From IMG/VR virus record IMGVR_UViG_3300007346_000006: 40,006 bases of DNA. One strand, given 5' to 3'. The position numbers and the translations under genes were made by a program. Every line of letters begins with the position of its first letter. Position 1 is the first letter of the stretch. Below are positions 1-40,006 of the stretch, piece by piece. The notes beneath the pieces were generated by a model. That model worked only from the letters and a program-made list of their open reading frames with translations, searched no databases and had not been told where the DNA came from. The stretch comes from a virus.

Positions 1-123
1 CAAATTATAGATGTTGAATTTGTTCTACGAGCGGATGAAGCAGCGCTTCCATCTCCCGTAAGAATAGTTGCACTATAGTTAGAACCGCTATCAGAATTAA
101 AACGCATAAGAACATCTGAGTTA
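1..123. repeat. Terminal overlap, left copy: bases 1-123 are identical to 39884-40006
   Basis: Read directly. Both copies run caaattatagatgttgaatt...aacatctgagtta with no mismatch seen. Implies a unit genome of 39,883 bp. Confidence 0.95.
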
Positions 124-1635: not shown

Positions 1636-3762
1636 TTAGAGTGCGCCCATTAATAAAAGTGTTAATTCGTCTGCAACGCTTCCAGGACCAGTTAATACTA
1701 CATCTGTTAGACCGCTAATTGTTGTTACTGTTGCTCCAGAATTTATTACTGTAGAACCAAGTGTTGGTGCTGAGTAACCAGAAACGTTTGACCAAGTAAG
1801 TCCAGTAGCAGTGCTTGAGTCAGCCTGTAGGTACTGTCCGTTAGTTCCAACTGTTAATTTACCTACAGTATCTGCTGCAGTTCCTACGATAAGGTCGCCC
1901 TTAGCGTCTATAACTGTGTTAGGAATTGCTGTGGCAAGATCAAATGCTGTGAAGGTGATTACCTCGAGCACATCGTTGACAGCAAGTGCTGCTAAGGATG
2001 TAATACTTGTTCCATTGGTTGCCGTGTAGTCAGAACCACGAACTAGGAGTACACCGTTTAGGTATACCTGTTCTTTGCCTGCTAAGTAAGATAGAGTTAA
2101 TCCGCCAGCATCAGTTCCTGATACAGAGGTTTCTCCACCTGTTGCTACGAACTTGTAGCGATAGATAGCAGCAGTTGAAGAGATAGATCCCCATGCAGAA
2201 AGTCCTGTATCCCATGCATACATGGCATTATCTACTGAGTTCCAGTAAATAGCTCCTTCAAGAATCGCATTTCCATCGTTATCTAATGTTGGAGGAGTTG
2301 ACTTTGCACCTAGGTATCTATCATCAAAGTTATCATAGGCTGTCTCAGCAGCAGCAGCGCTTGCTGCAGCAGCAGTAGCGCTACCAGCAACAGCATCAAC
2401 ATATTGCTTTGTAGCAGCCTGTAGATTTGCTGAAGGGTCTGCGTGAAGAGTCAGAGCACCAGTCATTGTGGAGCCTGACTTAAAGACTACGGCATCGTAG
2501 AATGTACCACCAGCCTGAATTTCATCAGCAATCTCTTTAAGAGTATCAAGAGTTCCAGGAGCACCATTGATTAGATTGGTAATCTCTGTATCAATGTAAC
2601 CCTTAGTTGCTGCGTCACCTGAATCTGTTGGAGTGCCAAGGCTTGTAATCTTCTGGCTGTTCATTGAGAACGAAGAAGTTGGCGCAGCCAAGTCTGTTAC
2701 TTTAGATGTGCGTACCTGTGTATCAAAGTCAGAGATAGTGCTGGCTGTCTGAGTGCCAGTATGGTTAGCACGGGCTAGTGGGTCAGTTGCTAACTTGCTA
2801 AGAGCAATAGCAGCCGAAGCGTTAATGTCATCATTTACGATAGTTCCATCTACAATGTCAGAGGATGTAATAGAACTGTTAAGGCTTAGTTTGCTGTAAG
2901 CAATACCTGCTGATGCGTTGATATCTGCGTTTACAATCGCACCAGTACCGATGCTGGTTGTTAGGCTTACGTTGCCTGTGCCATCAAAGGATACGGCGCT
3001 AGCCTCTACATCTCCTGTAAGTTGGAAGTCTCTAGCAGTTTGTAGGGCTGTGGCTGTAGCAGCATTACCTGTGGTAGAACCAGAGGATCCAGTCACGTTA
3101 CCAGTCACGTTACCTGTGACATTACCAGTTAGATTTGCCGTAACCGTATTTGCTGAGAAGTTACCTGAAGCATCTCTAGCTACGATCGCAGAGTTTGTGT
3201 TGGTTGATGTTGCTGTTGTGGCAGAGTTAGCTACCTTGCCAACTGTTGAGATAGTAGCAAGCTTGGTATCTGTAATAGCAGCTGAGGCGTTTATATCCGC
3301 ATTAGTGATAGCTCCATCAGCGATCTTAGCTGAGGTAACAGCGCTATCTGCAATCATTGCGGTAGATACTGTTCCAGTATCGGTAGTCTTTACTACGTTA
3401 GCAATAGTCAACCCGTGAGCCGATGTTGTGTTTTCGATATGAGTATTAGCTTCACGGAAGTCACGGCCGATAGCCATGTGACGAACCTTTGCACCAGCAG
3501 AGTGAGCAATTGCTGCAGTTCCATCGATGTTACGATTAACTGTTAATGTGTTGCTACCTGGGTTAGAGGGAGCAATTACATCGACAATTTCTTCGAGCGA
3601 GGTGTCTGGGTCGATGACAATGGTGAAAGTTTCACCTGCTGCTGGGGTGATGCTACCAAGCAAACCCGCTGCAGAGTTGACAACCATCGTTGTCTGAGAG
3701 GAGTTCATCGCTGATGTAAGCGTGGTCTCCTGAGATGTAGAGAGATATTTACGTATTGTCAT
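1636..3762 (-). CDS. Tail fibre / tail spike-like protein (708 aa)
   Basis: Repeated NADINASA(A/G)I segments, (NVTG)x3-4, Ala-rich coiled stretches, and a position inside the tail module. Confidence 0.75.
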   Translation of the reverse strand: MTIRKYLSTSQETTLTSAMNSSQTTMVVNSAAGLLGSITPAAGETFTIVIDPDTSLEEIVDVIAPSNPGSNTLTVNRNIDGTAAIAHSAGAKVRHMAIGRDFREANTHIENTTSAHGLTIANVVKTTDTGTVSTAMIADSAVTSAKIADGAITNADINASAAITDTKLATISTVGKVANSATTATSTNTNSAIVARDASGNFSANTVTANLTGNVTGNVTGNVTGSSGSTTGNAATATALQTARDFQLTGDVEASAVSFDGTGNVSLTTSIGTGAIVNADINASAGIAYSKLSLNSSITSSDIVDGTIVNDDINASAAIALSKLATDPLARANHTGTQTASTISDFDTQVRTSKVTDLAAPTSSFSMNSQKITSLGTPTDSGDAATKGYIDTEITNLINGAPGTLDTLKEIADEIQAGGTFYDAVVFKSGSTMTGALTLHADPSANLQAATKQYVDAVAGSATAAAASAAAAETAYDNFDDRYLGAKSTPPTLDNDGNAILEGAIYWNSVDNAMYAWDTGLSAWGSISSTAAIYRYKFVATGGETSVSGTDAGGLTLSYLAGKEQVYLNGVLLVRGSDYTATNGTSITSLAALAVNDVLEVITFTAFDLATAIPNTVIDAKGDLIVGTAADTVGKLTVGTNGQYLQADSSTATGLTWSNVSGYSAPTLGSTVINSGATVTTISGLTDVVLTGPGSVADELTLLLMGAL
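3091..3138. repeat. 12-bp tandem repeat (agtcacgttacc x2, then degenerate copies) encoding NVTGNVTGNVTG
   Basis: Read directly in the fibre gene. Confidence 0.85.
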
Positions 3763-4661
3763 TAGTACCTCGTGTAGTGGATTCGGACTGGGTATTGGCC
3801 ACGCAACTTGCCTGCTTCCTCGGCAAGGCGTTGCTGGTAAAGTGCGAGCATAAATCGAGCAGCATTAGAGCCAGAGCCAAATTGAATTTTAGTATCAGCT
3901 TGGTCTGCCTCGGCAGAAGTAAATGTAAGACGGCCTGGATCGATAAAGGAGGCTAGACGATAAGAAGCCCCATAAACAATAACATCTTTAGCAGATGAAG
4001 GTAATCCAGTTACTGTTTCAAAGACATCATTATTATTAACAAGAATGCTAGGTTCTTTACTGTACGTTACCTGCACAGTCCGACCTGGGGTAATACGGTC
4101 ATAAACCGAAATAGTTTGACCAGTAGCGTACGTAGCTGAATTAGCCATTTTATCGTGACGCCATTGTTTGACAGGCATCCATTCCCCGGTAGGGCCAGGA
4201 GTGTCCCAGGATACCCCTAAAACGTCGTCTATGGCCGATGGGAGGCTGTATGTCGACTGGGTGGCAGTAAGACTAAAGGTTGTTTTATCTACTCCAAAAA
4301 GCTGGGGAAAGACCGCTTTGATGCTGTCATTGATAGCCCTCTTGACAGAGAGTCTAGGGAAGGTAGGGGAGATAGTTACCTTTGTGTTAGTGGTGTGGCT
4401 GGCAGCAGTTGTGCCTTGATAGCCACGACCGTATGGAGCTGCAGTTGCTGTGCTCGACACGCGGTCATAACTATCCAGCCAGATCATTTCATCGTCGATT
4501 TCGACAACACCCTTGCCAATATTGGACACGCTACCTAGGTTTAAGATTAGAGCTGAGGAGTTGATGTCGGCAGTAAGGTGAGTGGTGCGATCTTGTCGCA
4601 TCGTATAGCCATTAAGATTTAGGAGAACTTCATCTACCAAATTGGCAAGAGTTGATGTCAT
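3762..4661 (-). CDS. Virion structural protein, function unknown (299 aa)
   Basis: Long ORF, start/stop-coupled, between the basic-protein block and the fibre gene. Confidence 0.75.
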   Translation of the reverse strand: MTSTLANLVDEVLLNLNGYTMRQDRTTHLTADINSSALILNLGSVSNIGKGVVEIDDEMIWLDSYDRVSSTATAAPYGRGYQGTTAASHTTNTKVTISPTFPRLSVKRAINDSIKAVFPQLFGVDKTTFSLTATQSTYSLPSAIDDVLGVSWDTPGPTGEWMPVKQWRHDKMANSATYATGQTISVYDRITPGRTVQVTYSKEPSILVNNNDVFETVTGLPSSAKDVIVYGASYRLASFIDPGRLTFTSAEADQADTKIQFGSGSNAARFMLALYQQRLAEEAGKLRGQYPVRIHYTRY

Positions 4662-11894: not shown

Positions 11895-14800
11895 TTAGTC
11901 CTTTGCTTTCATAGTTCCTGCAAATACACGATAAAACATTGGAGCGAATGCTGGATTCTCTAACATTAAACTGTCAGCAAGTTCTTGTAGTTGTGAACGT
12001 AACTCGCTTGCATACCAGTGTGAACTGCCTAAATCAGGGTTTGCGGTTACGCGAGTTTCTTTTAGTAGTTCTATTGCTCTAGAATATTGTTCATAGAATT
12101 GTGCTGTTTCTTTGTATACAGGAGACATCTGAAATGCTTTATCCTGTAAAGCTTTAGCAACGTTAGCAATACGCTCATTGTCAGTACCAACATTAATAAT
12201 AGATGCTGGAGCAGCATCACCGAAACGCTTGTTAAGTTTGTTTATTTCACCTGCATACCAGACATCTGAGTATCCCATGGCAGCTTGCATCTCAGAAATC
12301 TGAGACTTAACCATCTTGTAAACAAGTTCTTCCGCAGCAGAAGATAGCTCTTCTGTGTTTAAAGGTTCACGACGTCCTGTTTTCTTTTGCCAAGCGTAGT
12401 ATGCTGTAGCACCTTCTCCACCAGGGAAAAAGAATGGAACGATATCACCGTTCTTAGTAGCATACTTTTCTGCTACATCAGGATGCATATTCAAAAATGT
12501 CCAAGCATCTTTAGTACCAGTAACAGTACGTGTAGAACCACCGAGAATAGCTAGCAGATTGCGCTCGCCAAACTCTGTTGAGAACTCATGAACTGCTGCA
12601 AAGTAATCACCAGGATGCTTACGGCTAATCTGATCCCATGCATTGTAAAGCATAGTCATGCTAGCAAAGTCAACCTTTTTGTTATTAGGAATCTTTGCAA
12701 ATATTTCTTGAGAAGGTGTAGCTGGTGATATGCTCTGGAATAAGGCTGTTAGTAATCCAATACCACGAGACATACCCTCGGCATCCTTAAACAACTGATT
12801 TCTTGCGGTGTCGTCCATTAAAGGATTTTCGCCATATTGACCAGTAGAAGCTAGGTATGATGCCCAGTCTTTTACTCCACGCTCAACTGTTTTTTGATCG
12901 TTAAGAAGATAATAAAATGTTTTACGCAACCAAGCTGGAGCAAGAGACCCTACAGGATCTGTTATTTCTCCGAATGGCATTACTACATCACGTATAGTAT
13001 TCCATACAGGTCCGAATGCTGATGACTTACCACTTGCCTGAAAGGCAAACTGTCCTACAGGACCAATACCGGGAACTCCTGGATTAACAGCACCAAAAAC
13101 TAAGTTAAGTGACTGTACAGGAGCTGTAAGTTGTAGTGCCTGAGCAGAATCTATATTTCTACCTACTAAGCCTCCGATAAAACTTCCAGCAATTGGGTAA
13201 CGGAAACGTTTTTCACCAAACTCATCTTCATAGATGAAGCCTTGTCCCTCGTCATACTTAACACCAGTTATGTCGTAAATAGCGCTTGAGCCTTCCTTTG
13301 TTAAGGAATTGTAAGCACGACCTAGTTTGTAAAAGTTTACTGGGTTAGAAACAAATAGTTGTCCCCATTTTTTAACGGTATTAAGGTGCGCCTGAATGAA
13401 TGGGAATATAAGACGCATAGCCTGAGCAGACTGTAACTGCTTAGATGCATCATAAAATAATTCTTTGGTGTACTTAGCGCCTTGCTTAGAAGCCATTGAG
13501 TTAAGGTTAGCTAGGGTTATTCCACCCTCATGGACGTAATCATCTCCACGTCTCTTTAGTTCCTTCTCAATAATCTTGATAGTTTGGTGCTTCTTGCCCC
13601 AAGCCTTGCCATTCTTACGAAGTGGTGCTAAAGTTTTTATGGCAGAATCTTGAAGTTTCAATAAGTCATCAGTATCTAGCATTGTAGCATAACGGCCTAC
13701 GTGGTCCCAATAAGCCATACGGAACTCAGGTCCAAAAGTAGATAAGTTTTCAAGTCTAGCATTTAGATCAAAGAACCAATCTACTGCTTTAGTAAGCATT
13801 TTAGGCTCACCATCCGCAAAACGCTTAGTGCGAGATAATAATACTGTGGATTCTGGCATGTCTTCTCGCTTGAAGAATGATGCTAACTGAGATTTGAAAC
13901 CAATCTCAAGATCATCCATCTCTACAACATTCTTGAGTTTAGCGTAATCTGGGATAGAAATCTCTGTTGTTTTGTTACCTTGAGTAACAGTTATTTTACC
14001 TTTAGCAAGGATCTCACGAATATACTCAGCCTTAGGTCCTTTACCACCAATAGACTGGATAGCGTATTCATAAGAACCAGTAGAGTTAATATCAAATAGA
14101 TATGTTCTTAAGTTATCTACGTTTATATTATCTTTTGAAAAAGGCTTGGTGATATCTTTTAATATGATTCTGTCAAAGTCAGATACTTTTACACCAGTTA
14201 CTTCTTTAGAAGTACGAGCACCACGATGTATCTTTTCTAATATCTCAAGACCTTGTTTTCTGGTGGTAAGATAACTAATCAAATCATCTTGTAGTTCAGG
14301 TGTACGAGCGCGTGCTACAAGTGGCATTAGATCATCTTTGTTGAAACGCATAAGTGTTAATGCAAGGCCCTTGTAATAGGACTCGTGATTATTATTAACT
14401 ACTTCGTATATCTTACCTACGAAAGCAGTGCGAGGATCACCAGCACTGATACCGCGTTTCATGAATTGCAGATATTCATCTAAAGCATCTGTTACAAGCT
14501 TCTCGGTTATATCATCTTTGAAGTTATTGCCAAATATGTCATTTTGAGCTTTGCCGATACGAGCGGCAAGTGCCTGCATCTTTGTACCCTTAGGGTTGGC
14601 CATGGCCATAGCTAAAAACTGAATTGGATGATTAAATATACTATCGTGTCCTGAGAAGAACATACGAAGTTGCATTTCACCAATATTGCGCATTGTGTAA
14701 GATACACGGAATGCTAGCTGAGCTGTACGCCAGTAGTCACCTAATTGGTTTGCTGTTGTGGTTACAGCTTTAGCCTTACCATACAACGGTACATTTTTGT

Positions 14801-17705
14801 TATAGGTATTGATAGCGTCAATAATAGGACGTGTATCTGGCAGACGAATAACATCATCTAGGAACTGGTGAGCGTAGTTAGCACCAGTCATAGCTAGTTC
14901 TTCACCATTGGTAAAAAGAAGTTTAGGGTCTGTTCCCTGAGCTAAGTTAGCAACATTATACTGACGTACAATAGCTTGCTCTTTACCAGCAAGTTTTAGA
15001 GCATCATCTAGGACTTTAGCTAATTCAGTATCACCTTTACCAACTGTAGTAACAAGGTGTTTTTGCATCTTACGCATGCCGTCCATAATGACTTTAGCAC
15101 GTGCTGTGTAATCTTTTTCACTGATAACTTTATTTATTACATCATCAATTAAATCTTGTGGTACTTTAGCTGTGGTAAACCAGTCATTTAGGCCACGTGA
15201 TAATCTATCCAAATCGTTCAAAGGCAGAATAGATGAACGTATGTATTGATTAGTTAGAACCTTTTCTGCTCTTTCAATAAACGATACAGCCTTCAAACCT
15301 ACAGGTTCAGCAAGCTTAATTAGTGGATTACTACTGTTTAGGGCTAGCTCAGTGCGTAGCAATAGGCTACGAGCAATCTGTGGATCACTCTCAGGAGAAG
15401 CTAAATGCCTCAGCATTACAGCAATAACGCCTTCTGCGGTGTTAGCCTTAGCTAGTTCATCAACAATTTCGACATCTAACTTGCGTCCGAATAGACGATC
15501 TAGACGCATTGTATTGGTCTCTTTAGCTACAATCTCTGCAACTGCAAGGAATCTTTTACCGAATAGATACCGCATGGCTTTGGTTGTATTTGCAGATAAT
15601 CCACCGAATAGTGAATCTGTCAGACCTACTTCACTAGAAAAGAACTCTCTAGCATAGCGAGTATCAGCAATTTTCATGTCTAAATCCATGACTTTAGCTA
15701 TCCCAATATTATCAGGATCATTCAACATCATTTTAAGCAAATCAGGATCTTTGGCTGCATAATCGCGTAAAGTTTCAATATCCTTTAAGCGTTGTGCCAT
15801 TCCTTCAGATTCTAACCTAGCATTATCAAGGGCTTGCTTACTACTTGATAGAGTATCTTCTGCTCTTTCGATAACACTATCTAACTTCAACATAGCGTTT
15901 GCAGCCATAGTTGGCTCTGCAGATTCAGCTAATACTTCGCTAATTTTAACCTTACGAGCAGCTACATTGTCTATATTAGTTAGAACTATGCCACCAGTAT
16001 CACCAAAGATTGAACGAATATTAGCAAATCCATCTACTTTGTAGATATCTGAAATCATATCCACGATAGTAGCCATCATTCGTTGGTCTACGCCACCTTC
16101 TTTAGCAGCAATAACTGAAATATCTTGTAACCATGTACCTAAAGGTTTAGCTACAGTATCTTCAAGCATAGAAATTGCGACAGAACTTACAGCTGTATTC
16201 TCAGTTCTTAGAGTATTAAAAGCTTCACGTGTAGGTGCTGGTAATGTACCGTCATCTGCTGCTTGTTTAATTCTTTTTAATAGTTCTGTACGACGCTTTA
16301 GTTCCTGTGACCAAGCTTTTTGTGATAAACTAGTCGTGTCATCAGATAAATCAAGTAACTTAGGAGCTTTGCCATAGTAAGAGGCAACAAATTCGTCATT
16401 ACCACGTGTCGCAAGTGCTATCGAGCCAGGTGCTTGTGGTAGTTCATCAAAAAATACTCCACCAGGAAAAGCTCCTGATGTATTATAGTAATCCGAAGAT
16501 AACTTAGATAGTGCATCAACAGTTTCTTTTTGCTTACCTGTGTTGATTCGTTCAAAAATGAACTCGCCAATGTTACGGTTATTGAGGGGCAAACCTCCTG
16601 GACCTGCAAGGTTGGCAGCATTCTTAGTATCAGCAGCATATACTTTAGCCGCAGCAATATAATCTGCTTCAATGCGTGCTTGTTGTGCCTTCTGATATAC
16701 CTGCTCAGCCTTGAGGTACTTGTTTTCCGCTTGACGAGTAACTTCCTTAGCAAGTCCGGAACGCTCTTTAATGAGCCTTCTTTCTTCCTTGGTAAGGCCA
16801 GCTGCCTCAGCTAAACGATTAGATTCTTTTTTCAGTTCTTCAGCAGCAGCAAGTTTAGCTTTCTTAAGTTCTTTTCCACCTTTACCAATTTTGGTAATAG
16901 CACCAGGGCCTAACCAAATTGTAGGGTCTAAAGCTACGTTAAGTGTGGCATCAATAATGCCTGACATAACTTTATACTGCGTACTATTAGGATCTGAGCC
17001 TACAGTTTTAAGTGCAGCACGTCCAAGAGTAAAAGATTTACCATTGATAAGTCCATAAGCACCCATAGCCTTGACTTGAGCCTTCTGTACTTTAGATTTC
17101 TCGTTAATAAAGAAACCAGAACCTGTATCTACTTTAGTAGGATTAGCTAAAAATGCCCGTCCCAGCTGACCAAGTTGTGTAGTTTCACCAACTAGTCCTA
17201 AAGGACTAAGGTTTTGTACAAATTGACTTAAATCTGGCTTGTCTTTTTGAGTTGCAAGTGCATAAGCATCACGTCCGACTGTGGTTACATACTCATAAGG
17301 CGAGCGAAGTGCAGCAAAAAGCGTACGACTTGTACCTTTGAATCCACCATATAACACATCTTTGATATCTGCTGCTAGTGATTTATCTTCATCTAGTGCA
17401 GACTTGATATTTTTAGTGTTAATTAAATCTTGTTTTAATTGTGCTAGTCCGTCAACTGAAGCAATCTTACCAATACCAGGTGTATCTGGCTTCAAACCAA
17501 GCTTTACTGCAGACATAATGAAGTCTTTACTCTGGTTTGGATAAGAATTTACCCATGCATCAAAGTTCTGAAATTGATTAGGCGAAAGCATAGCCATCTC
17601 AGTTGAAATAACGCGATCAAGTTGAGACTGGACATTATCGAATATTCCAGTAACTTTTATACGTTTATTCTTCTCAGGATTCCATGCATCTAAAGGATTA
17701 GCCAC
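11895..17705 (-). CDS. Giant protein of unknown function (1936 aa); presumed internal/ejected virion protein
   Basis: A single uninterrupted 5.8-kb ORF between the portal and scaffold genes. I recognised no catalytic motif confidently. Confidence 0.85.
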   Translation of the reverse strand: MANPLDAWNPEKNKRIKVTGIFDNVQSQLDRVISTEMAMLSPNQFQNFDAWVNSYPNQSKDFIMSAVKLGLKPDTPGIGKIASVDGLAQLKQDLINTKNIKSALDEDKSLAADIKDVLYGGFKGTSRTLFAALRSPYEYVTTVGRDAYALATQKDKPDLSQFVQNLSPLGLVGETTQLGQLGRAFLANPTKVDTGSGFFINEKSKVQKAQVKAMGAYGLINGKSFTLGRAALKTVGSDPNSTQYKVMSGIIDATLNVALDPTIWLGPGAITKIGKGGKELKKAKLAAAEELKKESNRLAEAAGLTKEERRLIKERSGLAKEVTRQAENKYLKAEQVYQKAQQARIEADYIAAAKVYAADTKNAANLAGPGGLPLNNRNIGEFIFERINTGKQKETVDALSKLSSDYYNTSGAFPGGVFFDELPQAPGSIALATRGNDEFVASYYGKAPKLLDLSDDTTSLSQKAWSQELKRRTELLKRIKQAADDGTLPAPTREAFNTLRTENTAVSSVAISMLEDTVAKPLGTWLQDISVIAAKEGGVDQRMMATIVDMISDIYKVDGFANIRSIFGDTGGIVLTNIDNVAARKVKISEVLAESAEPTMAANAMLKLDSVIERAEDTLSSSKQALDNARLESEGMAQRLKDIETLRDYAAKDPDLLKMMLNDPDNIGIAKVMDLDMKIADTRYAREFFSSEVGLTDSLFGGLSANTTKAMRYLFGKRFLAVAEIVAKETNTMRLDRLFGRKLDVEIVDELAKANTAEGVIAVMLRHLASPESDPQIARSLLLRTELALNSSNPLIKLAEPVGLKAVSFIERAEKVLTNQYIRSSILPLNDLDRLSRGLNDWFTTAKVPQDLIDDVINKVISEKDYTARAKVIMDGMRKMQKHLVTTVGKGDTELAKVLDDALKLAGKEQAIVRQYNVANLAQGTDPKLLFTNGEELAMTGANYAHQFLDDVIRLPDTRPIIDAINTYNKNVPLYGKAKAVTTTANQLGDYWRTAQLAFRVSYTMRNIGEMQLRMFFSGHDSIFNHPIQFLAMAMANPKGTKMQALAARIGKAQNDIFGNNFKDDITEKLVTDALDEYLQFMKRGISAGDPRTAFVGKIYEVVNNNHESYYKGLALTLMRFNKDDLMPLVARARTPELQDDLISYLTTRKQGLEILEKIHRGARTSKEVTGVKVSDFDRIILKDITKPFSKDNINVDNLRTYLFDINSTGSYEYAIQSIGGKGPKAEYIREILAKGKITVTQGNKTTEISIPDYAKLKNVVEMDDLEIGFKSQLASFFKREDMPESTVLLSRTKRFADGEPKMLTKAVDWFFDLNARLENLSTFGPEFRMAYWDHVGRYATMLDTDDLLKLQDSAIKTLAPLRKNGKAWGKKHQTIKIIEKELKRRGDDYVHEGGITLANLNSMASKQGAKYTKELFYDASKQLQSAQAMRLIFPFIQAHLNTVKKWGQLFVSNPVNFYKLGRAYNSLTKEGSSAIYDITGVKYDEGQGFIYEDEFGEKRFRYPIAGSFIGGLVGRNIDSAQALQLTAPVQSLNLVFGAVNPGVPGIGPVGQFAFQASGKSSAFGPVWNTIRDVVMPFGEITDPVGSLAPAWLRKTFYYLLNDQKTVERGVKDWASYLASTGQYGENPLMDDTARNQLFKDAEGMSRGIGLLTALFQSISPATPSQEIFAKIPNNKKVDFASMTMLYNAWDQISRKHPGDYFAAVHEFSTEFGERNLLAILGGSTRTVTGTKDAWTFLNMHPDVAEKYATKNGDIVPFFFPGGEGATAYYAWQKKTGRREPLNTEELSSAAEELVYKMVKSQISEMQAAMGYSDVWYAGEINKLNKRFGDAAPASIINVGTDNERIANVAKALQDKAFQMSPVYKETAQFYEQYSRAIELLKETRVTANPDLGSSHWYASELRSQLQELADSLMLENPAFAPMFYRVFAGTMKAKD

Positions 17706-23369: not shown

Positions 23370-23558
23370 ATGTATCTATCCGACCTCGACATTGTTGCTA
23401 TTTCCATAGCACTCGTGTCGTTAATGGCTCTCGTAATCACGAGTGCCGTTGCTAACGCAAGACTCACACGCCAGCGTGACGAGTGGCGTCGTGAAGCATT
23501 GAACCTTCAGCGAGTAATGGACTCGTTGTCGCCCATCACACGAAAGGAAAACGCATGA
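23370..23558 (+). CDS. Small single-pass membrane protein (62 aa)
   Basis: Hydrophobic IVAISIALVSLMALVITSAVA followed by a basic tail. ATGA overlap with the next gene. Confidence 0.7.
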   Translation: MYLSDLDIVAISIALVSLMALVITSAVANARLTRQRDEWRREALNLQRVMDSLSPITRKENA

Positions 23559-25129
23559 CCAACTCATATCCACCCGACCTACCCCCCGAAATACACTTCT
23601 CGTGGGGTGTCACAGGTGTCGGCGCATGTGCCAGATGCCGAGATATTCGCACGCTCATAGTTCACTCTGCTCTTCACACGGCAGATGAGTGTGAGCCATT
23701 ATGCTTAGAGTGCCTTCACTCGGCACTTACAACTTTCTGTTCAGACGCTCGCTCAAAGATGTGGGAGTTTGAACAAAACGGAGCGCGCATTGAAGATACT
23801 CCTGAGTATCAAGTGGCAAAGGCTACTTACGACACCTATTACGAGGTAATAGATGTGTTGATGAATAATCGCGCTCGTATCCAGCACACACGAGAGGAAG
23901 TCCTAGCACACGAACAAGGTTGTAAAGCCTGTGCGTGCTTCGGCTCTAACCTTGTTTTCGCTATATCGTATTATGACCACAGCATTACAGGTAGGGTTCA
24001 CGAGAACTGTGCTAGTCGTTGCTCTTGTTGTGATAAGAACTACTATCGTCCATTTTCGCGTGGAGTTGGCGGTTATTTCGAACTAAATCGCGTAATGAGG
24101 GAACGAGGCGCTCTTTCACGAATATGCCAAGAGTGTTTTGATGAACTTCGCATAGAGGACTCACACATGCTGTGTGACTGTGGCAATTGGGATACAGAGG
24201 AACGCATGTTTGAAGCGTGGGATAATCTCTACTGCCGAGGGTGTTCTTCCAATATAGATGACTGCGACTATTGCGGTGAACTACGCTGGACAGATGGCGA
24301 CCATACATGCGACGAAGAAAGTCGAGTTATCAAGAGTTATGACTTCGTGCCTAGCGGTGGCTTCGTGTTTCATGGTGATAGCCCACTTAATCACTATCTA
24401 GGGTTCGAACTCGAGGTCGAACTACCGAGCGGTGATAGCCTCAAGCCTATCGCTTCACAGACAAATGACTTAATCGGTGAGCGTGGTTTTCTCAAGTATG
24501 ACGGCTCGCTTGATAACGGCTTCGAGTTAGTCACCATGCCACACACACTTGAGGAATACATGAGCAAGTTCCCGTTCACGGCACTTGACGAACTCCGCGA
24601 GAGCGGTTTTCGCTCATGGGATACCGATACATGTGGCTTCCATATCCATGTATCACGAGCCACATTCGGTATGCGCTTGAAGGATACAAAACCTACACAG
24701 GGTCGCAAAGACGCACACATGCTCCGCTTTACGAAACTCATCTACGATAATCGTAGGCAAGTTAAGCGTATCGCAGGTAGAAGTTCCGATAGGTGGGCTT
24801 CGTTTGATGATGTAGGTCGTTTGACCGATAAAATCAAGACAGGTCATCAGGTAAATGGCAGATACTCCGCAGTAAATATCTCATCTAAGCGCACACTCGA
24901 GATCCGTGTGTTCAAGGGTTCTCTCAATGTGAGCCGAGTGAAGGCATACCTTCAGTTCGTTCACAGCACAGTCGAGTATACACGGGAGCTTCATGTAAGC
25001 CCTAATGATAACAACCTGATGTGGCGTAGATACACGGGTTGGCTTCACAAGAACGAACAGCAGTATCCCGAGTTGGTATCCCTACTCGGCAACCTACCCG
25101 AAAGACGCTCTGATGAAGGGGGCAACTAG
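23555..25129 (+). CDS. Amidoligase (carboxylate-amine ligase, phage 'Amidoligase_2'-type) with a ~260-aa Cys-rich N-terminal extension
   Basis: C-terminal half: SYDFVPSGGFVFHG...HYLGFELEVE...LKYDGSLDNGFELVTMPH...DTCGFHIHVSR. N-terminal half carries many CxxC/CxC pairs (CARCRD, CLECLH, CKACAC, CSCCD, CQECF, CDCG, CRGC, CDYCG). Confidence 0.75.
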   Translation: MTNSYPPDLPPEIHFSWGVTGVGACARCRDIRTLIVHSALHTADECEPLCLECLHSALTTFCSDARSKMWEFEQNGARIEDTPEYQVAKATYDTYYEVIDVLMNNRARIQHTREEVLAHEQGCKACACFGSNLVFAISYYDHSITGRVHENCASRCSCCDKNYYRPFSRGVGGYFELNRVMRERGALSRICQECFDELRIEDSHMLCDCGNWDTEERMFEAWDNLYCRGCSSNIDDCDYCGELRWTDGDHTCDEESRVIKSYDFVPSGGFVFHGDSPLNHYLGFELEVELPSGDSLKPIASQTNDLIGERGFLKYDGSLDNGFELVTMPHTLEEYMSKFPFTALDELRESGFRSWDTDTCGFHIHVSRATFGMRLKDTKPTQGRKDAHMLRFTKLIYDNRRQVKRIAGRSSDRWASFDDVGRLTDKIKTGHQVNGRYSAVNISSKRTLEIRVFKGSLNVSRVKAYLQFVHSTVEYTRELHVSPNDNNLMWRRYTGWLHKNEQQYPELVSLLGNLPERRSDEGGN

Positions 25130-25131
25130 TT

Positions 25132-26007
25132 ATGTGTATGTTATGTGTAATACCACCGAACACTATCCCATCACGGGATAAGTTAGAAAACTCTGCGCTC
25201 AACAACCCACATGGGTTCGGTTTCGCTATCGTTGTGCCTGAGGAAAATCGTATCATCTGCGAGCGTAGTATGAGCGCAGACGAAAGCATTAACCGCTTCC
25301 TTGAGTTGCGTGGTAAGTATCAGACGGGCTATGCCATGTGGCACGCTCGTATTGCTACGAGTGGCAAGATAGATATATCTAACTGCCACCCGTTCCTGCT
25401 ACCTGATAGCGAGCACCCAAACACTACCTATGTAGGACACAATGGTATGCTTGATGTCTACGAAGCCAAAGACGAAGTGCGTAGTGACACACGCATATTC
25501 GTAGAGGACTTAATTCCTGCTCTTGGTGGCGTGACCGCGCTCGATAACATTCAAATATTCACCATGCTTGACGAGTTCACACGCGGATCAAAGGTGTGTA
25601 TTCTTACAGTTCACCCAAAGGCTGAGTATCAGATGTATCTATTCCACGAGGAAGCAGGTCACACAGACGAGGACAAAGTGTGGTGGTCGAATAAGTCGTG
25701 CGAACTAGATACCAAAAGTCTTTACAACGGCTACTACGACTATGGCTACGCAGGAGCTTTCGTTAAAGACGGCAAGGAAGGCGTGGAAGCGTATTACAAC
25801 TGGTATGTATGCCAAACATGTAAGCACGAGTTCGACTGGGAAACCGAGTGTCCTGATGACTACTGCCCCAAGTGCCGAACCTGCCTTATGTGTGAGTCAA
25901 GCGAGGCGGTGTGCTTCTGCTATCGCCCTGAGAGCAAAAAGAAAACAGACTATGACCGACCTCATAGGTCATACTACGCACCTGAAGGGGGGTGGGCTAT
26001 ATCATGA
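25132..26007 (+). CDS. Class-II (Ntn, N-terminal Cys) glutamine amidotransferase-like protein with a C-terminal zinc ribbon
   Basis: MC at the N-terminus, HARIATSGKIDISNCHPF, VGHNGML (YafJ-type pattern). C-terminus: CQTCKHEF...CPDDYCPKCRTCLMCESSEAVCFC. Confidence 0.75.
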   Translation: MCMLCVIPPNTIPSRDKLENSALNNPHGFGFAIVVPEENRIICERSMSADESINRFLELRGKYQTGYAMWHARIATSGKIDISNCHPFLLPDSEHPNTTYVGHNGMLDVYEAKDEVRSDTRIFVEDLIPALGGVTALDNIQIFTMLDEFTRGSKVCILTVHPKAEYQMYLFHEEAGHTDEDKVWWSNKSCELDTKSLYNGYYDYGYAGAFVKDGKEGVEAYYNWYVCQTCKHEFDWETECPDDYCPKCRTCLMCESSEAVCFCYRPESKKKTDYDRPHRSYYAPEGGWAIS

Positions 26008-27256: not shown

Positions 27257-27268
27257 CTTCTACTCGGA

Positions 27269-27305
27269 AGCCCTACGCGTGTGTGGCGCGTGGGGCTTTT
27301 TTTTT
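27269..27305 (+). terminator. Rho-independent terminator closing the plus-strand operon
   Basis: agccctacgcg-tgtgtgg-cgcgtggggct followed by nine T. Confidence 0.85.
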
Positions 27306-29776: not shown

Positions 29777-30128
29777 GCTTTTTACCTTCCTCTATAAGCA
29801 TCTTCTCTAAACCATTGTAAACTTCGTGCATCTCTGTGTGTACAAGTACTTCCTCCATGAAATCAGCAAGTAATCCCTCTCCTGCGTTCATAAAGACTAG
29901 AGCAGTGCTCTGCACGCATTCGTATGCATCTTGGTACTTGTTTTCCATAATCAAGTTATTGAGTGTTGATAGAAACTGAAACACATCAAATGTGTAGTTA
30001 CGAGTCAGACGTACGCCCCACTCGTATTGAACGTCGTTATGCCCAAGGAAGTCAAAGATATCTCTAAACTGGTCACCACAGTTACATTCATATCGACCAT
30101 CATGGTCAGGAATTAATGGCTTATCCAC
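29766..30128 (-). CDS. Hypothetical protein (120 aa)
   Basis: ORF overlapping both neighbours by a few nt. Confidence 0.7.
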   Translation of the reverse strand: MDKPLIPDHDGRYECNCGDQFRDIFDFLGHNDVQYEWGVRLTRNYTFDVFQFLSTLNNLIMENKYQDAYECVQSTALVFMNAGEGLLADFMEEVLVHTEMHEVYNGLEKMLIEEGKKHDK

Positions 30129-30747
30129 GTACGCTCGCTATCTTATTCTTAAAGAAATCAGGACCTTCCTGACGATACATTGAATTTACATCTTCTCCTT
30201 CAGGCATCTGAATCACAGTCAAACCTGAGAGTTCTCTTGCGAGAGACTTTGCGAACTCGTGTCCTGCGTTGTCTCCATCGGCAAATAAGAACACATTGTC
30301 AAAGTCAGCCAAGAGCCTAGTGTAATGCTTCTTCCAATTGTTAACACCTGGAACACCCACGGCAGGTAGGTTGCAGACAACATCGAGCGTGATGGTGTCA
30401 ATCTCACCTTCAGCAATACAAATGTATGAGCCCGCTCTGAAAAAAGCTCCGACATTATAGAGGCGAGTTGTTGCCCCACTAAGCCCCATGTACCTTGGCT
30501 CTTCATCTCCGAGCGCTCTAAAACGCAAGTCGACCACACCCGACCTAGTGAGGTACGGAATAGAGAGACGTCCTGAGTAAGCTTCATGACCCGTTAACGG
30601 ATCTAACACGACGCCCAAGCGAGCCTGACGTGCTTGCTCTAGAGAGATTCCCCGTTCTGCGAGGTATTCCTCCGCTTCGTGTATTGCGCTGTGGTAATAC
30701 TTTGCCGCTCGCGTTAAGGATTCTCTCTGCGATGCTGAGTGCTTCAC
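30121..30747 (-). CDS. dnaG: DNA primase, TOPRIM/catalytic part (second reading frame)
   Basis: ICIAEGEIDTITL and FLFADGDNAGHEFA (TOPRIM Glu and DxD). The upstream AAKYYHSAIHEAEEYLAERGISLEQARQARLGVV is typical primase linker sequence. The drawn start is a GTG. Confidence 0.8.
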   Translation of the reverse strand: MKHSASQRESLTRAAKYYHSAIHEAEEYLAERGISLEQARQARLGVVLDPLTGHEAYSGRLSIPYLTRSGVVDLRFRALGDEEPRYMGLSGATTRLYNVGAFFRAGSYICIAEGEIDTITLDVVCNLPAVGVPGVNNWKKHYTRLLADFDNVFLFADGDNAGHEFAKSLARELSGLTVIQMPEGEDVNSMYRQEGPDFFKNKIASVRG

Positions 30748-30958
30748 GAAACTGTACCCCTTCCTTGTTCATGATGAGTGAAAACCCATCTCCTTTTACT
30801 TGGCATGCGAAGCAACAGAATACACCTTCATCTGTATTCGCGCTAGCCGAATTATGTGTGTCATCGTGGAACGGACACTTCATAGAAAACCAACCACGAC
30901 GTGTTGGTACACGAGCACCATAGTGCTCTAAAATCGCTGATATATCAGGCTTTTCCAC
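30584..30958 (-). CDS. dnaG: DNA primase, CHC2 zinc-finger part (first reading frame)
   Basis: CPFHDDTHNSASANTDEGVFCCFACQVKGDGFSLI. The last ~40 aa are Arg/Ser-rich and look like out-of-frame read-through. Confidence 0.8.
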   Translation of the reverse strand: MEKPDISAILEHYGARVPTRRGWFSMKCPFHDDTHNSASANTDEGVFCCFACQVKGDGFSLIMNKEGVQFREALSIAERILNASGKVLPQRNTRSGGIPRRTGNLSRASTSGSLGRRVRSVNGS

Positions 30959-31292: not shown

Positions 31293-31718
31293 TTAGTACC
31301 AACCATTCCTTTGCCAAAAAGCCCAGGCACGCTCAGGCGTACCATAGCGGTGAACGATGTACTTCAGTCCTTTATTCACTTGATATTCAATTGTAGAGTT
31401 ACGTGGTGTATTAAGTACCTGCGCTATTCCATACGCAGATGAGCGAGGATTCTTAGCCTTGTAGTTCCAGGCAGATTCCTTGCCCCATAGTTTTGCGAGT
31501 GCAGACCATTGACGATCTCCATTTTTGAACATTTCATTCACCCGATAACGAGCGAATATCTTTGCTTTAGTCTTGTGATCGATCGGTTGGATTGCGAACA
31601 GTTGCTTGCACCCAACCTCTTGGTGTGTCGATTTCACTAACCAAGCACCCACAGCGTGGGGCAAGGTAGCCACAAAAAGTGCAATCGCGGATAGCATTGA
31701 TACTGTTGTTAGTTTCAT
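31293..31718 (-). CDS. Secreted lysozyme-like transglycosylase (SLT/Apf-C-terminal type)
   Basis: Signal-peptide-like N-terminus (MKLTTVSMLSAIALFVATLPHAVGA). KESAWNYKAKNPRSSAYGIAQ...YIVHRYGTPERAWAFWQRNGWY. Confidence 0.7.
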   Translation of the reverse strand: MKLTTVSMLSAIALFVATLPHAVGAWLVKSTHQEVGCKQLFAIQPIDHKTKAKIFARYRVNEMFKNGDRQWSALAKLWGKESAWNYKAKNPRSSAYGIAQVLNTPRNSTIEYQVNKGLKYIVHRYGTPERAWAFWQRNGWY

Positions 31719-31951
31719 CTTTCCTCCGTTGGAGCGGTTGCTTGTGTTCCACAGTCAGCACACTCCATATCTAAGAAATACATCCCTATCGTACCATCCT
31801 CATCGAATGTTACTTTAAGGTTCCATAAGAAACTACCACACACACATACCGTGGTTGGTTTACCACGTATATCCATCGCCCGAGTGTAGTCAGGACGTAA
31901 CTCGGTTATGTCTTTCACTTGCTCTGCGTAACTATTTGTATAGGTAGGCAA
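31715..31951 (-). CDS. Zinc-ribbon protein (78 aa from the TTG; 67 aa if it starts at the GTG at 31918, which overlaps the upstream TGA)
   Basis: CVCG...CADCG pairs. GTGA coupling with the HslV-like gene. Confidence 0.6.
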   Translation of the reverse strand: MPTYTNSYAEQVKDITELRPDYTRAMDIRGKPTTVCVCGSFLWNLKVTFDEDGTIGMYFLDMECADCGTQATAPTEER

Positions 31952-32475
31952 GTGTTGATGTCAAGCCTACAGGAGATAGCAAGGGCTTTCTTCGCTATCA
32001 AAGTAGCAGCTTGAACTGACTTGATCTTCTTTGTATCCACCGAGTGGAGATACCCAAGAGCGAACGAGCCACCAGAGCCAGCAGCATAATAACCTGACTC
32101 TGTACATAAGAAGGACATATCATCACCTATAGAAAACAATTTACCATTGAATCCTAATAAATATTGGAATGAAATTTCCTTCTTATCTTCCCCTTCTAAG
32201 TCAAAGCCATTAACCTTAAAGGCTTCAAGCATAGAGGGAATAATAGATTTACCCATGAATTGAATCTCATCACCTTGTTTGTAGACAGGTGGATTCCAGT
32301 TGTAAGTCAAGATATCTCCCGGACGAGCATCGCCTGAGATACCTAAAATATATTTACCAATGCGTATAATCTTGGGTGTCTTGGGAGAGATGATGCGCTG
32401 GTTATCTTCGGTTATTTGCGAATCGGCTGCCATGACTATAAAGTCTTTGCCTTGTATTCCGACTATTGTTGTCAC
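31915..32475 (-). CDS. HslV / proteasome beta-subunit-like Ntn (Thr1) peptidase
   Basis: GTG start, then TTIVGIQGKDFIVMAADSQIT...PKTPKIIRIGKYILGISGDARPGD...YAAGSGGSFALGYL...AKKALAISCRLDINT, colinear with E. coli HslV (MTTIVSVRR...GDGQAT...KKVRRL...GFAGGTADA...AIGSGG...AEKALDIAGDI). GGGAG lies 7 nt upstream. Confidence 0.8.
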   Translation of the reverse strand: MTTIVGIQGKDFIVMAADSQITEDNQRIISPKTPKIIRIGKYILGISGDARPGDILTYNWNPPVYKQGDEIQFMGKSIIPSMLEAFKVNGFDLEGEDKKEISFQYLLGFNGKLFSIGDDMSFLCTESGYYAAGSGGSFALGYLHSVDTKKIKSVQAATLIAKKALAISCRLDINTCLPIQIVTQSK

Positions 32476-32486
32476 CAGCGCACTCC

Positions 32487-33272
32487 CTATACTCTCTCTA
32501 CGTCCGATACGTTCATTACTTCAGGATTGAATTGGAGCCAAAACGCATCTTCCCCTGAAGCGTTTGCCTTACCGTAACGATTCTTTACAGAGGCGACTGC
32601 CAAAAATCCTGGAGCATTTGAACCCACAGTCAGAATTAATGCTGGTAACTGAGCAACCATTCCCTGCAGCGCAGAGCGTGGTTGGCACGGATTTCCAGGA
32701 TATGACTCTTTCGTGTGGTGTAGTACTAGCACCGCAGCATTGGTGTCACGGGCTAGATATTTGAGTTCCTTAATGGTAGAACGCATGCCAGCGAATTCTT
32801 CTCCTGAATCGTTAGCAACATCCATTAAGTTATCGACAACGATGAGTGTAGGAGAGCATCCCCATAACTCCTCGAATGCCAATACTTCATTATCTAAATC
32901 AGCCAAAGTCGGGGCTGACTCAAAGGACCAAAAGATATGTCCTGATTGTTCGTTAATAATCTTTCGTGAGTTATCTACATCTTCAATTAACATCTGCTCT
33001 GCTTCTGTTTGGTTACGTCCAGTAATCATAGACAACAGTCGCATAGCCATCGTGTGAGCATTAGTATCCGCGCTAACGTATAGCGTTGGGACTTTTGATC
33101 TCAACGCTATCGCTAGTGCAAGTGTTGATTTGCCAACACCAGGAGTGCCAGCAATCATGGAGACTTCTGCTCGGCGTATTACAACCTTGTTGGTATCAAA
33201 GGTACGGAAAACCGTAGGTAACGGCTCACCGCCAATGTCTTTGCTACCAACAGCACGAGCAAGAGTTCTCAT
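32487..33272 (-). CDS. DnaB C-terminal/RepA-like RecA-fold ATPase (probable replicative helicase)
   Basis: Walker A GTPGVGKST, Walker B LIVVDNLMD, VLVLHHTKE (RepA/AAA_25-like). Confidence 0.75.
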   Translation of the reverse strand: MRTLARAVGSKDIGGEPLPTVFRTFDTNKVVIRRAEVSMIAGTPGVGKSTLALAIALRSKVPTLYVSADTNAHTMAMRLLSMITGRNQTEAEQMLIEDVDNSRKIINEQSGHIFWSFESAPTLADLDNEVLAFEELWGCSPTLIVVDNLMDVANDSGEEFAGMRSTIKELKYLARDTNAAVLVLHHTKESYPGNPCQPRSALQGMVAQLPALILTVGSNAPGFLAVASVKNRYGKANASGEDAFWLQFNPEVMNVSDVERV

Positions 33273-34842: not shown

Positions 34843-34870
34843 AATATATCACAAGATTATGGTTATGCAA
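34843..34870 (-). promoter_or_regulatory. Candidate early promoter
   Basis: The minus strand reads TTGCAT-16 nt-TATATT, immediately after the lysis-cassette terminator and about 140 nt upstream of the first early ORF. Confidence 0.45.
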
Positions 34871-34874
34871 ATGC

Positions 34875-39637: not shown

Positions 39638-40006
39638 TATGCCGCCTTTATTCCGTAGAGGGTGAAGGTTGTTCCAGTTGCATAAGATGATGAACTAAGA
39701 GAAAAATCTATTGAAGTTATAGCAGCAGGTGTTGCTCTCCATATACCAACAATCGCTTCCGTTGCTTGCGCTGCACGGTTAGCGCGAATTAAAGCAGTCT
39801 TGTAAGTTGTCGTGTTAGAATAGTTTTGAATGCTTATGTTAAACTGAGTTGCAGGAGAACTATTAAGAAAGTTAAAATAGTTGCAAATTATAGATGTTGA
39901 ATTTGTTCTACGAGCGGATGAAGCAGCGCTTCCATCTCCCGTAAGAATAGTTGCACTATAGTTAGAACCGCTATCAGAATTAAAACGCATAAGAACATCT
40001 GAGTTA
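39637..40006 (-). CDS. LYGIK-family paralog P1, C-terminal part (5' end continues at 123->254 of the circular map)
   Basis: The Met at 39990 in the ORF track is internal. The frame stays open to the window end and is continuous with 1..254. Confidence 0.8.
   Translation of the reverse strand, partial: NSDVLMRFNSDSGSNYSATILTGDGSAASSARRTNSTSIICNYFNFLNSSPATQFNISIQNYSNTTTYKTALIRANRAAQATEAIVGIWRATPAAITSIDFSLSSSSYATGTTFTLYGIKAA
39884..40006. repeat. Terminal overlap, right copy of 1-123
   Basis: Same 123-nt string as the window start. It lies inside a coding region. Confidence 0.95.

Follow-up and report, generated by a model that had tools for sequence, protein, structure and literature searches.

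A 186-aa peptidase of the proteasome-beta/HslV superfamily is encoded in the viral record IMGVR_UViG_3300007346_000006 of IMG/VR, a stretch of 40,006 nt that was analyzed at its full length and is referred to below as the window. The gene (31915..32475 on the minus strand, stop codon included) lies in the replication operon of a phage that very probably infects a freshwater actinobacterium, and the phage genome encodes neither an AAA+ unfoldase nor a second proteasome-like protein. Profile searches, a structural model, and an alignment of 121 homologues placed the product among the N-terminal nucleophile (Ntn) hydrolases of MEROPS family T1. The gene is under strong purifying selection but is missing from most sibling phage loci. 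With moderate confidence, we regard its product as an active, propeptide-free threonine peptidase that serves the phage as an accessory protein during infection.

Family assignment, fold, and active site

The open reading frame (ORF) starts with GTG and specifies the N-terminus M-TTIVG. Its stop-to-stop frame extends to position 32520, and the 15 codons located 5' of the GTG contain no further ATG, GTG, or TTG; therefore, no N-terminal propeptide can be encoded. The M-T-T start was found in almost all of about 90 more distant cluster representatives. Longer N-termini predicted for some database homologues contain an internal M/V/L-T-T and look like miscalled starts.

The Pfam family PF00227 (Proteasome) matched the protein with 44.4 bits (cutoff 22.4), residues 2–49 alone being aligned, and PHROG 1040 'peptidase HslV family' covered residues 1–184 (E=3.9e-25). 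An AlphaFold2 (AF2) model built with 72 homologues reached a predicted local distance difference test score (pLDDT) of 89.3 and a predicted template modelling score (pTM) of 0.86. The order of strands and helices in this model was that expected for the alpha-beta-beta-alpha sandwich of Ntn hydrolases, with helices H1–H4 present. When the model was compared with the PDB by Foldseek, the betaproteobacterial proteasome homologue (BPH) of Thiobacillus (5ovs) was the top match with a template modelling score (TM) of 0.76 and E=2e-11, followed by HslV and 20S beta subunits; the matches to the three kinds of protein had a probability of 1.00 and TM of 0.69–0.76. By sequence, the best PDB entry for the family profile was HslV of B. 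anthracis (E=2.6e-7), and hhalign of the same profile against E. coli HslV gave a probability of 88.5% and E=2.7e-6. Scores against the NCBIfam equivalog models were far below the cutoffs, both for HslV (29.9 bits vs. 157.75 for TIGR03692 and 30.8 vs. 137 for NF003964) and for the archaeal 20S beta subunit (46 bits vs. 224 for TIGR03634). By these scores, the peptidase is not a genuine HslV, nor is it a genuine 20S beta subunit. It belongs to the compact 'group I' set of proteasome-like homologues, which comprises HslV, BPH, AAH, CPH, and PPH (Fuchs, Alva and Lupas, 2021; PMC8665760).

In the alignment, residues T2, D18, K35, G48, G133, G135, G136, and D172 were invariant (121/121), and S134 was present in 119 of the 121 homologues. 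At the sequence level, T2, D18, K35, G48, S134, and D172 correspond to Thr1, Asp17, Lys33, the oxyanion Gly47, Ser129, and Asp166, respectively. The motifs AADSQIT (residues 16–22), PKTPKIIRI (containing K35), GISGDARPGD (45–54), and AAGSGGSFALGYL (131–143) all occur in the protein. Two further invariant elements, RPGD (51–54) and W60-x-PP-x-Y65, are peculiar to the phage family. The W-x-PP-x-Y segment is missing from HslV and is shared with the homologue of the 'Ca. Planktophila' phage E7. It is probably exposed on the apical face, the one that faces HslU in HslV.

The ratio of nonsynonymous to synonymous substitution (dN/dS) in pairwise comparisons of relatives at 78–95% identity was 0.07–0.10, in the same range as for the adjoining replication genes, which shows that the peptidase gene is under strong purifying selection. 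The initial annotation, made from the letters of the window, had read this GTG-TTIVG ORF as an HslV/proteasome-beta-like Ntn threonine peptidase on the strength of the motifs listed above. Each of its statements about the sequence holds, and membership in the superfamily, with all catalytic landmarks, was confirmed well beyond chance by sequence comparison: the PF00227 score lies above the cutoff, with the HslV equivalog models well below theirs, and the equivalents of Thr1, Lys33, and the oxyanion Gly are conserved throughout the family.

Phage genome and host

The ends of the window form an exact 123-nt direct repeat, and the sequence matches a 40,026-bp ENA contig. Because of the repeat, we consider the window a circularly assembled complete genome of 39,883 bp. 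Its structural genes include TerL, portal, capsid, and an SU10-type adaptor. A lysis cassette is followed by a minus-strand replication operon, which encodes in order a Cas4-like nuclease, an L5-gp49-like protein, a DnaB-like helicase, the HslV-like peptidase, a zinc-ribbon protein, an SLT-like protein, a RusA-like protein, a split primase, DUF1599, HNH, a phosphoesterase, and a sigma factor. The neighbors named in the initial annotation, a RecA-fold DnaB-like helicase on the 5' side and a GTGA-coupled zinc-ribbon protein on the 3' side, were found as described; the TGA stop of the peptidase gene (31917..31915) overlaps the GTG start of the zinc-ribbon gene (31918..31916) in a GTGA junction at 31915–31918.

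WhiB is encoded in the window, and whiB serves as an actinophage marker (PMC6802176). The closest relatives of the window TerL, at 57% identity, were those of OX376640 and OX376641, the phages E7 and F5 of 'Ca. Planktophila' (Nanopelagicales). The genomes of these phages have 39.1 and 38.9 kb, respectively, and a GC content of 44.8%; that of the window is 44.4%. Judging from WhiB and the TerL likeness, the host is very probably a low-GC freshwater actinobacterium. A megablast search with 6 kb of the window against 50,697 phage records gave no matches.

Distribution and accessory status of the peptidase gene

A word-indexed search with the peptidase returned 438 clusters at 90% identity. The exhaustive profile search yielded 5,351 representatives at E<=1e-3 and just 31 at E<=1e-30; thus, the close family is a compact one within a large and diverse superfamily. 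In IMG/VR, at least 584 viral contigs encode close relatives. The index of the contig collection lists the identical protein for 45 blocks, and 24 contigs with this protein were read. In a scan of 185,579 species-representative genomes with degenerate patterns specific to close relatives, the only match was a 2.7-kb contig of a metagenome-assembled genome, itself with phage genes. Within the reach of this pattern scan, the close family was seen on phage-like contigs only. Cluster look-up of the family returned metagenome entries only, under the JGI name 'HslVU peptidase subunit', and P0131 and P0144, two distant representatives used as seeds for IMG/VR scans, gave no matches. As many as 41 viral structures of BFVD matched the fold at E<1e-3. 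The remark of the initial annotation that such peptidases are uncommon in phages was thus overstated, given PHROG 1040, the BFVD structures, the IMG/VR contigs, and two publications (PMC8665760, PMC7823757).

Among relatives of about 40 kb, three configurations were found. In the window clade (78–100% identity), DnaB is followed by the HslV-like gene and then by the zinc-ribbon gene. In a sister clade (54–60% identity), the order is lysis cassette, zinc-ribbon gene on the opposite strand, HslV-like gene, Cas4, gp49, WhiB, and DnaB. The third configuration is that of HslV-less siblings: in 73 of the 80 loci fetched via the zinc-ribbon protein, DnaB is joined directly to the zinc-ribbon gene, with no HslV-like ORF within 3 kb (within 10 kb for loci L193 and L194). 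More remote homologues occupy other sites. In phage E7 (OX376640), the homologue (L091 4001–4537) directly follows the portal gene; in the P0143 type (L105 6001–6564), it stands between the gene for the major head protein and the tail genes; DSL-LC01, an Actinomycetia phage of 129 kb, has it beside whiB among hypothetical genes, already annotated as 'ATP-dependent protease subunit HslV'. Since the gene is missing from 73/80 sibling loci and varies in position between lineages, it is an accessory, mobile gene. It is no fixed part of the replication or morphogenesis machinery.

The exact site of the window's HslV-like gene is occupied in the HslV-less siblings by a micro-ORF of 29 aa (L193 9934–10023, on a contig of 42.9 kb), which bridges DnaB and the zinc-ribbon gene and encodes an acidic peptide (MSIFDPIIPEPNWG...DPDEWEDDD).

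Expression signals

In the window, the peptidase gene is close-packed within the long minus-strand operon and has its own Shine-Dalgarno sequence. The early-gene context proposed in the initial annotation agrees with this location, the operon being one of replication (early/middle) genes. A candidate host-type promoter of the operon was recognized by its match to the consensus (Table 1). Within the operon, a promoter scan returned no more matches than shuffled sequence did.

Leaderless mRNAs are common in Actinobacteria. Of the 64 distinct upstream regions in the sister clade, 56 have an extended -10 element (TGnTANNNT) that ends 5–9 nt before the ATG of the peptidase gene; an SD-like motif is lacking in 53 of the 56. 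Because of this spacing and the prevailing lack of such a motif, the sister-clade transcript would be leaderless. The peptidase is thus probably the first protein made from the replication operon in this clade, early and from a host-type promoter. The intergenic region between the divergent zinc-ribbon and HslV-like genes of the sister clade is highly conserved (L003 9926–10045; L001 ~9780–10000). It contains a GC-rich hairpin (GGCCCT..AGGGCC), a TTCGCC..CATATTGTA block, and a GTGATAnnnT extended -10 located 6–7 nt before the ATG, a distance that also suggests a leaderless transcript.

Search for an unfoldase or a partner subunit

The initial annotation stated that the phage has no cognate AAA+ unfoldase, and the complete 39.9-kb genome bears this out. 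Pfam and PHROG scans of window ORFs of at least 75 aa identified two NTPases, the DnaB-like helicase and TerL, and no AAA+ unfoldase. In a Walker A scan of the window, the helicase was the sole credible site outside TerL, and no AAA+ gene was found in the neighborhoods of relatives. The family hidden Markov model detected one proteasome-like ORF in the window; there is therefore no alpha-like partner. Neither the peptidase nor the zinc-ribbon protein nor the amidoligase pair described below was recognized by PADLOC.

The initial annotation also proposed docking on neighboring gene products or on a host unfoldase. We found no specific support for the DnaB-like helicase as a surrogate unfoldase: its adjacency to the peptidase is not conserved, the sister-clade gene not being beside the helicase. 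Specific support was likewise lacking for docking on the zinc-ribbon protein, which is encoded without the peptidase in 73/80 sibling loci. As for host unfoldases, Table 1 of PMC8665760 records no HslV for Actinobacteria. With an actinobacterium as host, HslU is thus an unlikely docking partner, its absence being deduced from that of HslV; docking on other host AAA+ rings is weighed below. We found no literature linking Nanopelagicales and the proteasome. A Pup-like tagging link between the peptidase and the amidoligase/amidotransferase pair (23555–26007) was considered and rejected, the pair not being within 10 kb of the peptidase gene in any locus of the 54–60% identity clade.

The zinc-ribbon gene

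The zinc-ribbon gene adjoins the peptidase gene in 87/87 informative loci, in two arrangements. It lies 3' of the peptidase gene on the same strand in the window clade (19 loci), the GTGA overlap having been read in the window itself, and it is divergent from the peptidase gene, across the conserved intergenic region, in the sister clade (68 loci). The gene is present in a single copy per genome and is under purifying selection (dN/dS <=0.13). Its product had no Pfam or PHROG match apart from a sub-threshold DUF7160 in Pfam. Its structural model had a pLDDT of 70.9, and Foldseek recognized no known fold (best E ~2). The more distant HslV-like genes, those of DSL-LC01, E7, and the P0143 type, have no zinc-ribbon gene nearby.

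The idea of a partnership dedicated to the peptidase lost weight after the reverse search, in which 73 of 80 zinc-ribbon loci lacked the peptidase gene. The zinc-ribbon gene is a core gene, and its product cannot serve the peptidase exclusively; a dependence of the peptidase on it is the most that could hold.

Comparison with known proteasome-like proteins

The phage protein resembles HslV (ClpQ) in its M-T-T-I-V type of N-terminus, propeptide-free in both, in the co-linear GD/ADSQ.T, catalytic Lys, G..G, GSGG, and C-terminal D/N-T motifs, and in a pore loop that is approximately as short; the best PDB matches by sequence profile were also to HslV. In contrast to HslV, it scores far below the NCBIfam cutoffs, is encoded in a genome without hslU, and belongs to a phage whose host phylum has no recorded HslV. 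Two insertions also set it apart, W-x-PP-x-Y of 6–7 residues between H1 and H2 and RPG behind the oxyanion Gly, and its pore loop is acidic, whereas that of HslV is basic.

BPH (5ovs, 5ovt, 5ovu), whose subunits form a heptameric double ring, was the top structural match, and both proteins are compact group I subunits. However, sequence similarity between BPH and the phage family is weak (E=2e-4 to 3e-3). BPH has no known unfoldase partner and carries a long acidic pore loop after H2 (PMC8665760). Such a long loop was not seen in the sequence alignments of the phage protein, in which the loop length is HslV-like. Furthermore, BPH is a cellular protein, unlike the close phage family with its phage-like contigs.

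With PPH, AAH, CPH, and PHROG 1040, the phage peptidase has in common that they are phage-encoded, propeptide-free, without an ATPase partner, and uncharacterized. Fuchs et al. (2021) called PPH the first true viral member, reported AAH from many phages, and could find no Actinobacteria-specific phage encoding AAH; their references for AAH and CPH are WP_035979212 and WP_008185288. Phage HslV without HslU was also remarked on in a 2020 paper on jumbo phages (PMC7823757). We rejected an identification as PPH, which has about 140 aa and is without helix H2 (PMC8665760): the peptidase has 186 aa, and H2 was modelled at residues 70–88. With regard to AAH, a homologue from a Streptomyces plasmid was closer to the family profile than E. 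coli HslV (hhalign E=1.2e-11 vs. 2.7e-6), which is compatible with the Actinobacteria-rich AAH cluster; in contrast to the 2021 survey, which had no actinophage AAH, the window family sits in actinophages. This homologue, WP_274036447 of Streptomyces sp. MMBL 11-1 (L195 3001–3543, 180 aa), starts with M-T-V-I-V-G and has GCGD instead of GSGG. Its gene is located on a 399-kb linear plasmid and adjoins a 3'-5' exonuclease gene.

Homologues are also known from the cultured or deposited actinophages E7/F5 (OX376640/1) and DSL-LC01 (WJZ48484). The E7 homologue shares 32% identity with the peptidase (E=5e-30) and the W-x-PP motif, and the DSL-LC01 homologue was recovered by hhalign at E=4.3e-29. These phages also have freshwater actinobacterial hosts and WhiB in their genomes. 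They differ from the window in the position of the gene (after the portal gene in E7, beside whiB in DSL-LC01) and in having no zinc-ribbon neighbor, and the DSL-LC01 homologue, with 229 aa, has a C-terminal extension.

Proposed role and alternative explanations

The explanation that we favor, and consider fairly probable, is that the gene encodes a catalytically competent, propeptide-free Ntn threonine peptidase which acts as an accessory protein on peptides or unfolded proteins during infection. Host methionine aminopeptidase would remove the initiator Met and expose Thr1, and the subunits may then assemble into a homo-oligomeric ring or double ring, by analogy with HslV or BPH. The window phage would produce the peptidase together with its replication genes; in the sister clade, where its gene would be leaderless and comes first behind an extended -10 promoter of host type, synthesis would be early. 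The chamber would degrade peptides or unfolded and loosely folded polypeptides in the infected cell, either without ATP, as do isolated HslV, BPH, and the 20S core, or with the help of a borrowed host AAA+ ring other than HslU. The benefit would be a dispensable gain in fitness through host takeover, removal of a host factor or defense protein, or amino-acid recycling in a streamlined host.

Several points weigh against this explanation. Isolated HslV and BPH are very weakly active on folded proteins, so that an unassisted chamber may do little; the activity of BPH is discussed in PMC8665760. Early timing in the window phage is argued from the position in the operon and the consensus match of the candidate promoter, and the promoter counts were not above chance. 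In two related lineages, E7 and the P0143 type, the homologue belongs to the morphogenesis module, where it follows the portal gene and the major head gene, respectively; such a position would fit a virion-related role rather than host takeover. The literature yielded no experimental or biochemical study of any phage member.

The phage ring could instead dock on a host AAA+ unfoldase (Mpa/ARC, Cpa, ClpX, or ClpC1) and form a hybrid ATP-dependent protease that redirects host proteolysis. The phage encodes no unfoldase of its own, and in the alignments the pore loop that follows H2 has approximately the short length of that in the ATPase-gated HslV, unlike the long acidic loop of BPH (for the rationale, see PMC8665760). 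The invariant W-x-PP-x-Y insertion also fits, its probable location being the H1–H2 face that contacts HslU or the alpha ring in known complexes. No specific partner is indicated, however, and HslU is presumably absent from the host, so we regard such a hybrid as unlikely, though worth serious consideration. Doubtful in our opinion is a two-component module in which the zinc-ribbon protein is an activator, adaptor, or inhibitor of the peptidase or a transcriptional regulator. The adjacency of the two genes at all informative loci in two arrangements, the single copy of the zinc-ribbon gene per genome, and purifying selection on both genes speak for it. But the two arrangements may stem from just one or two rearrangements, the zinc-ribbon gene is a core gene that directly follows DnaB without an HslV-like gene in 73/80 loci, and it does not accompany the more distant homologues in DSL-LC01, E7, and the P0143 type. 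In addition, the model of the zinc-ribbon protein is mediocre and has no structural match, and no conserved C-terminal docking motif is visible.

The location of the E7 and P0143-type homologues, the former with its 32% identity directly after the portal gene and the latter between head and tail genes, would suit a morphogenetic or virion-associated protease, for example, one for head maturation or the processing of internal proteins, and no classical prohead protease was recognized in the window. In the window, however, the gene is inside the replication operon between the helicase and primase genes, and in the sister clade it heads that operon; siblings with the same structural genes do without the peptidase, so it is unneeded for morphogenesis here. 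We know of no prohead protease with the Ntn fold, and we hold a virion role to be highly improbable. The protein might also be no protease at all, but an Ntn amidohydrolase or a ligase for a specific substrate (connectase-like), or an inactive decoy directed against the proteasome of the host. The superfamily does contain the ligase connectase and many uncharacterized divergent homologues (PMC8665760), and two motifs close to the active site, RPGD and W-x-PP-x-Y, are invariant in the phage family and specific to it. Against a decoy stands the conservation of the full proteolytic set (Thr1, Asp17, Lys33, Gly47, the Ser of GSGG, and the C-terminal Asp), and co-assembly with 20S beta subunits is unlikely at an identity of 14–22% in the Foldseek alignments. 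The two-helix S3/S4 insertion of connectase is missing from the peptidase model. We consider a non-proteolytic function very unlikely.

Other features of the phage genome

Coordinates of the peptidase gene, its predicted active-site codons, and further features of the window are listed in Table 1.

Table 1. Features of the window (IMGVR_UViG_3300007346_000006) with their positions, strands, and supporting observations.
Feature	Position	Strand	Supporting observations
HslV/proteasome-beta-like Ntn peptidase gene	31915..32475	-	PF00227, PHROG 1040, AF2 model, Foldseek match to BPH 5ovs, and dN/dS (values in the text)
Shine-Dalgarno sequence GGGAG	32483..32487	-	7 nt 5' of the peptidase GTG, overlaps the helicase TAG; read from the sequence
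Thr, codon 2, predicted N-terminal nucleophile (Thr1) after removal of the initiator Met	32470..32472	-	121/121 homologues; no in-frame upstream start
Asp, codon 18, Asp17 equivalent	32422..32424	-	121/121; aligns with HslV D17
Lys, codon 35, Lys33 equivalent in the TPKI motif	32371..32373	-	121/121; aligns with the catalytic Lys of B. anthracis HslV
Gly, codon 48, equivalent of oxyanion-hole Gly47	32332..32334	-	121/121
W60-x-P-P-x-Y65, family-specific insertion between H1 and H2	32281..32298	-	W60, P63, and Y65 invariant; 6–7-residue gap in HslV profile alignments
GSGG motif, codons 133–136, Ser129/Gly-Ser-Gly equivalent	32068..32079	-	G133, G135, and G136 invariant, S134 in 119/121; aligns with HslV GSGG
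DnaB-like replicative helicase (RecA fold), 5' neighbor	32487..33272	-	AAA_25 E=2.7e-18; DnaB_C; phrog_243 E=4e-73
Four-Cys zinc-ribbon-like protein of 67 aa, 3' neighbor	31715..31918	-	GTG start overlaps the peptidase stop
Candidate host-type promoter of the replication operon (TTTGCA-17-TATATT with TG)	34843..34871	-	consensus match alone; GTGATAT extended -10 as in the sister clade
SLT-like transglycosylase	31293..31718	-	hydrophobic N-terminal segment
CHC2 zinc-ribbon ORF of the split primase	30584..30958	-	
Toprim ORF of the split primase	30121..30747	-	
Hairpin of 15 bp with T tract	27266..27300	+	GC-rich
Class-II glutamine-amidotransferase-like protein	25132..26007	+	PF13230 26.7 bits; starts M-C
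Amidoligase_2-like protein, 524 aa	23555..25129	+	PF12224 27.1 bits
ORF of 1,936 aa in the structural module	11895..17705	-	no Pfam matches
SU10-type adaptor	3762..4661		
Terminal direct repeat, 123 nt	1..123 and 39884..40006		exact

Within the replication operon, the SLT-like transglycosylase gene is located directly 3' of the zinc-ribbon gene; in the sister clade, it is on the opposite strand and further downstream. Two overlapping ORFs in different frames, one with the CHC2 zinc ribbon and one with Toprim, make up the DnaG-type primase. This split was also seen in relatives and may represent two genes or a frameshift. The hairpin with its T tract is situated where the plus-strand block from amidoligase to WhiB meets the minus-strand replication operon and is probably a bidirectional terminator.

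In the plus-strand block, the glutamine-amidotransferase-like gene directly follows the amidoligase-like gene. With its M-C start, the amidotransferase-like protein would be a Cys-Ntn hydrolase, the second Ntn enzyme of the genome. The pair is kept in the window clade and in the HslV-less siblings and was not found within 10 kb in the 54–60% identity clade. The product of the 1,936-aa ORF may be an internal, ejection, or tail protein of this podovirus-like genome with its SU10-type adaptor.

Significance

Orphan proteasome/HslV-like peptidases of phages are a kind already known, and the abundant actinophage member described here is an incremental addition to them. The new details are its accessory status, its lineage-variable position, the probable leaderless early expression in the sister clade, the family-specific, probably apical insertion, and the existence of a culturable relative system. 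Actinophage members are added to a group of which the 2021 survey had no actinophage-encoded AAH; the family studied here is not assigned to AAH. Proteasome/HslV homologues are widespread in phages. We also envisage, as a speculative proposal in which we place little confidence, that phages of genome-streamlined freshwater actinobacteria carry an accessory proteolytic chamber, expressed immediately on infection and working without a phage unfoldase, which would commandeer a host AAA+ ring distinct from HslU or have the adjacent zinc-ribbon protein as its activator, and would destroy a host factor or defense protein or turn host protein into amino acids for reuse. If true, viruses would here have a novel way of taking over their host, based on a threonine peptidase of the proteasome type.

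The subfamily is abundant and strongly conserved in relatives of phages that infect 'Ca. Nanopelagicales', which are among the most abundant freshwater bacteria. The related phages E7 and F5 can be grown on a cultured host, 'Ca. Planktophila' LanE-43, and a homologue is present in E7, so the function and the partner of an orphan phage peptidase of this type are open to experiment.

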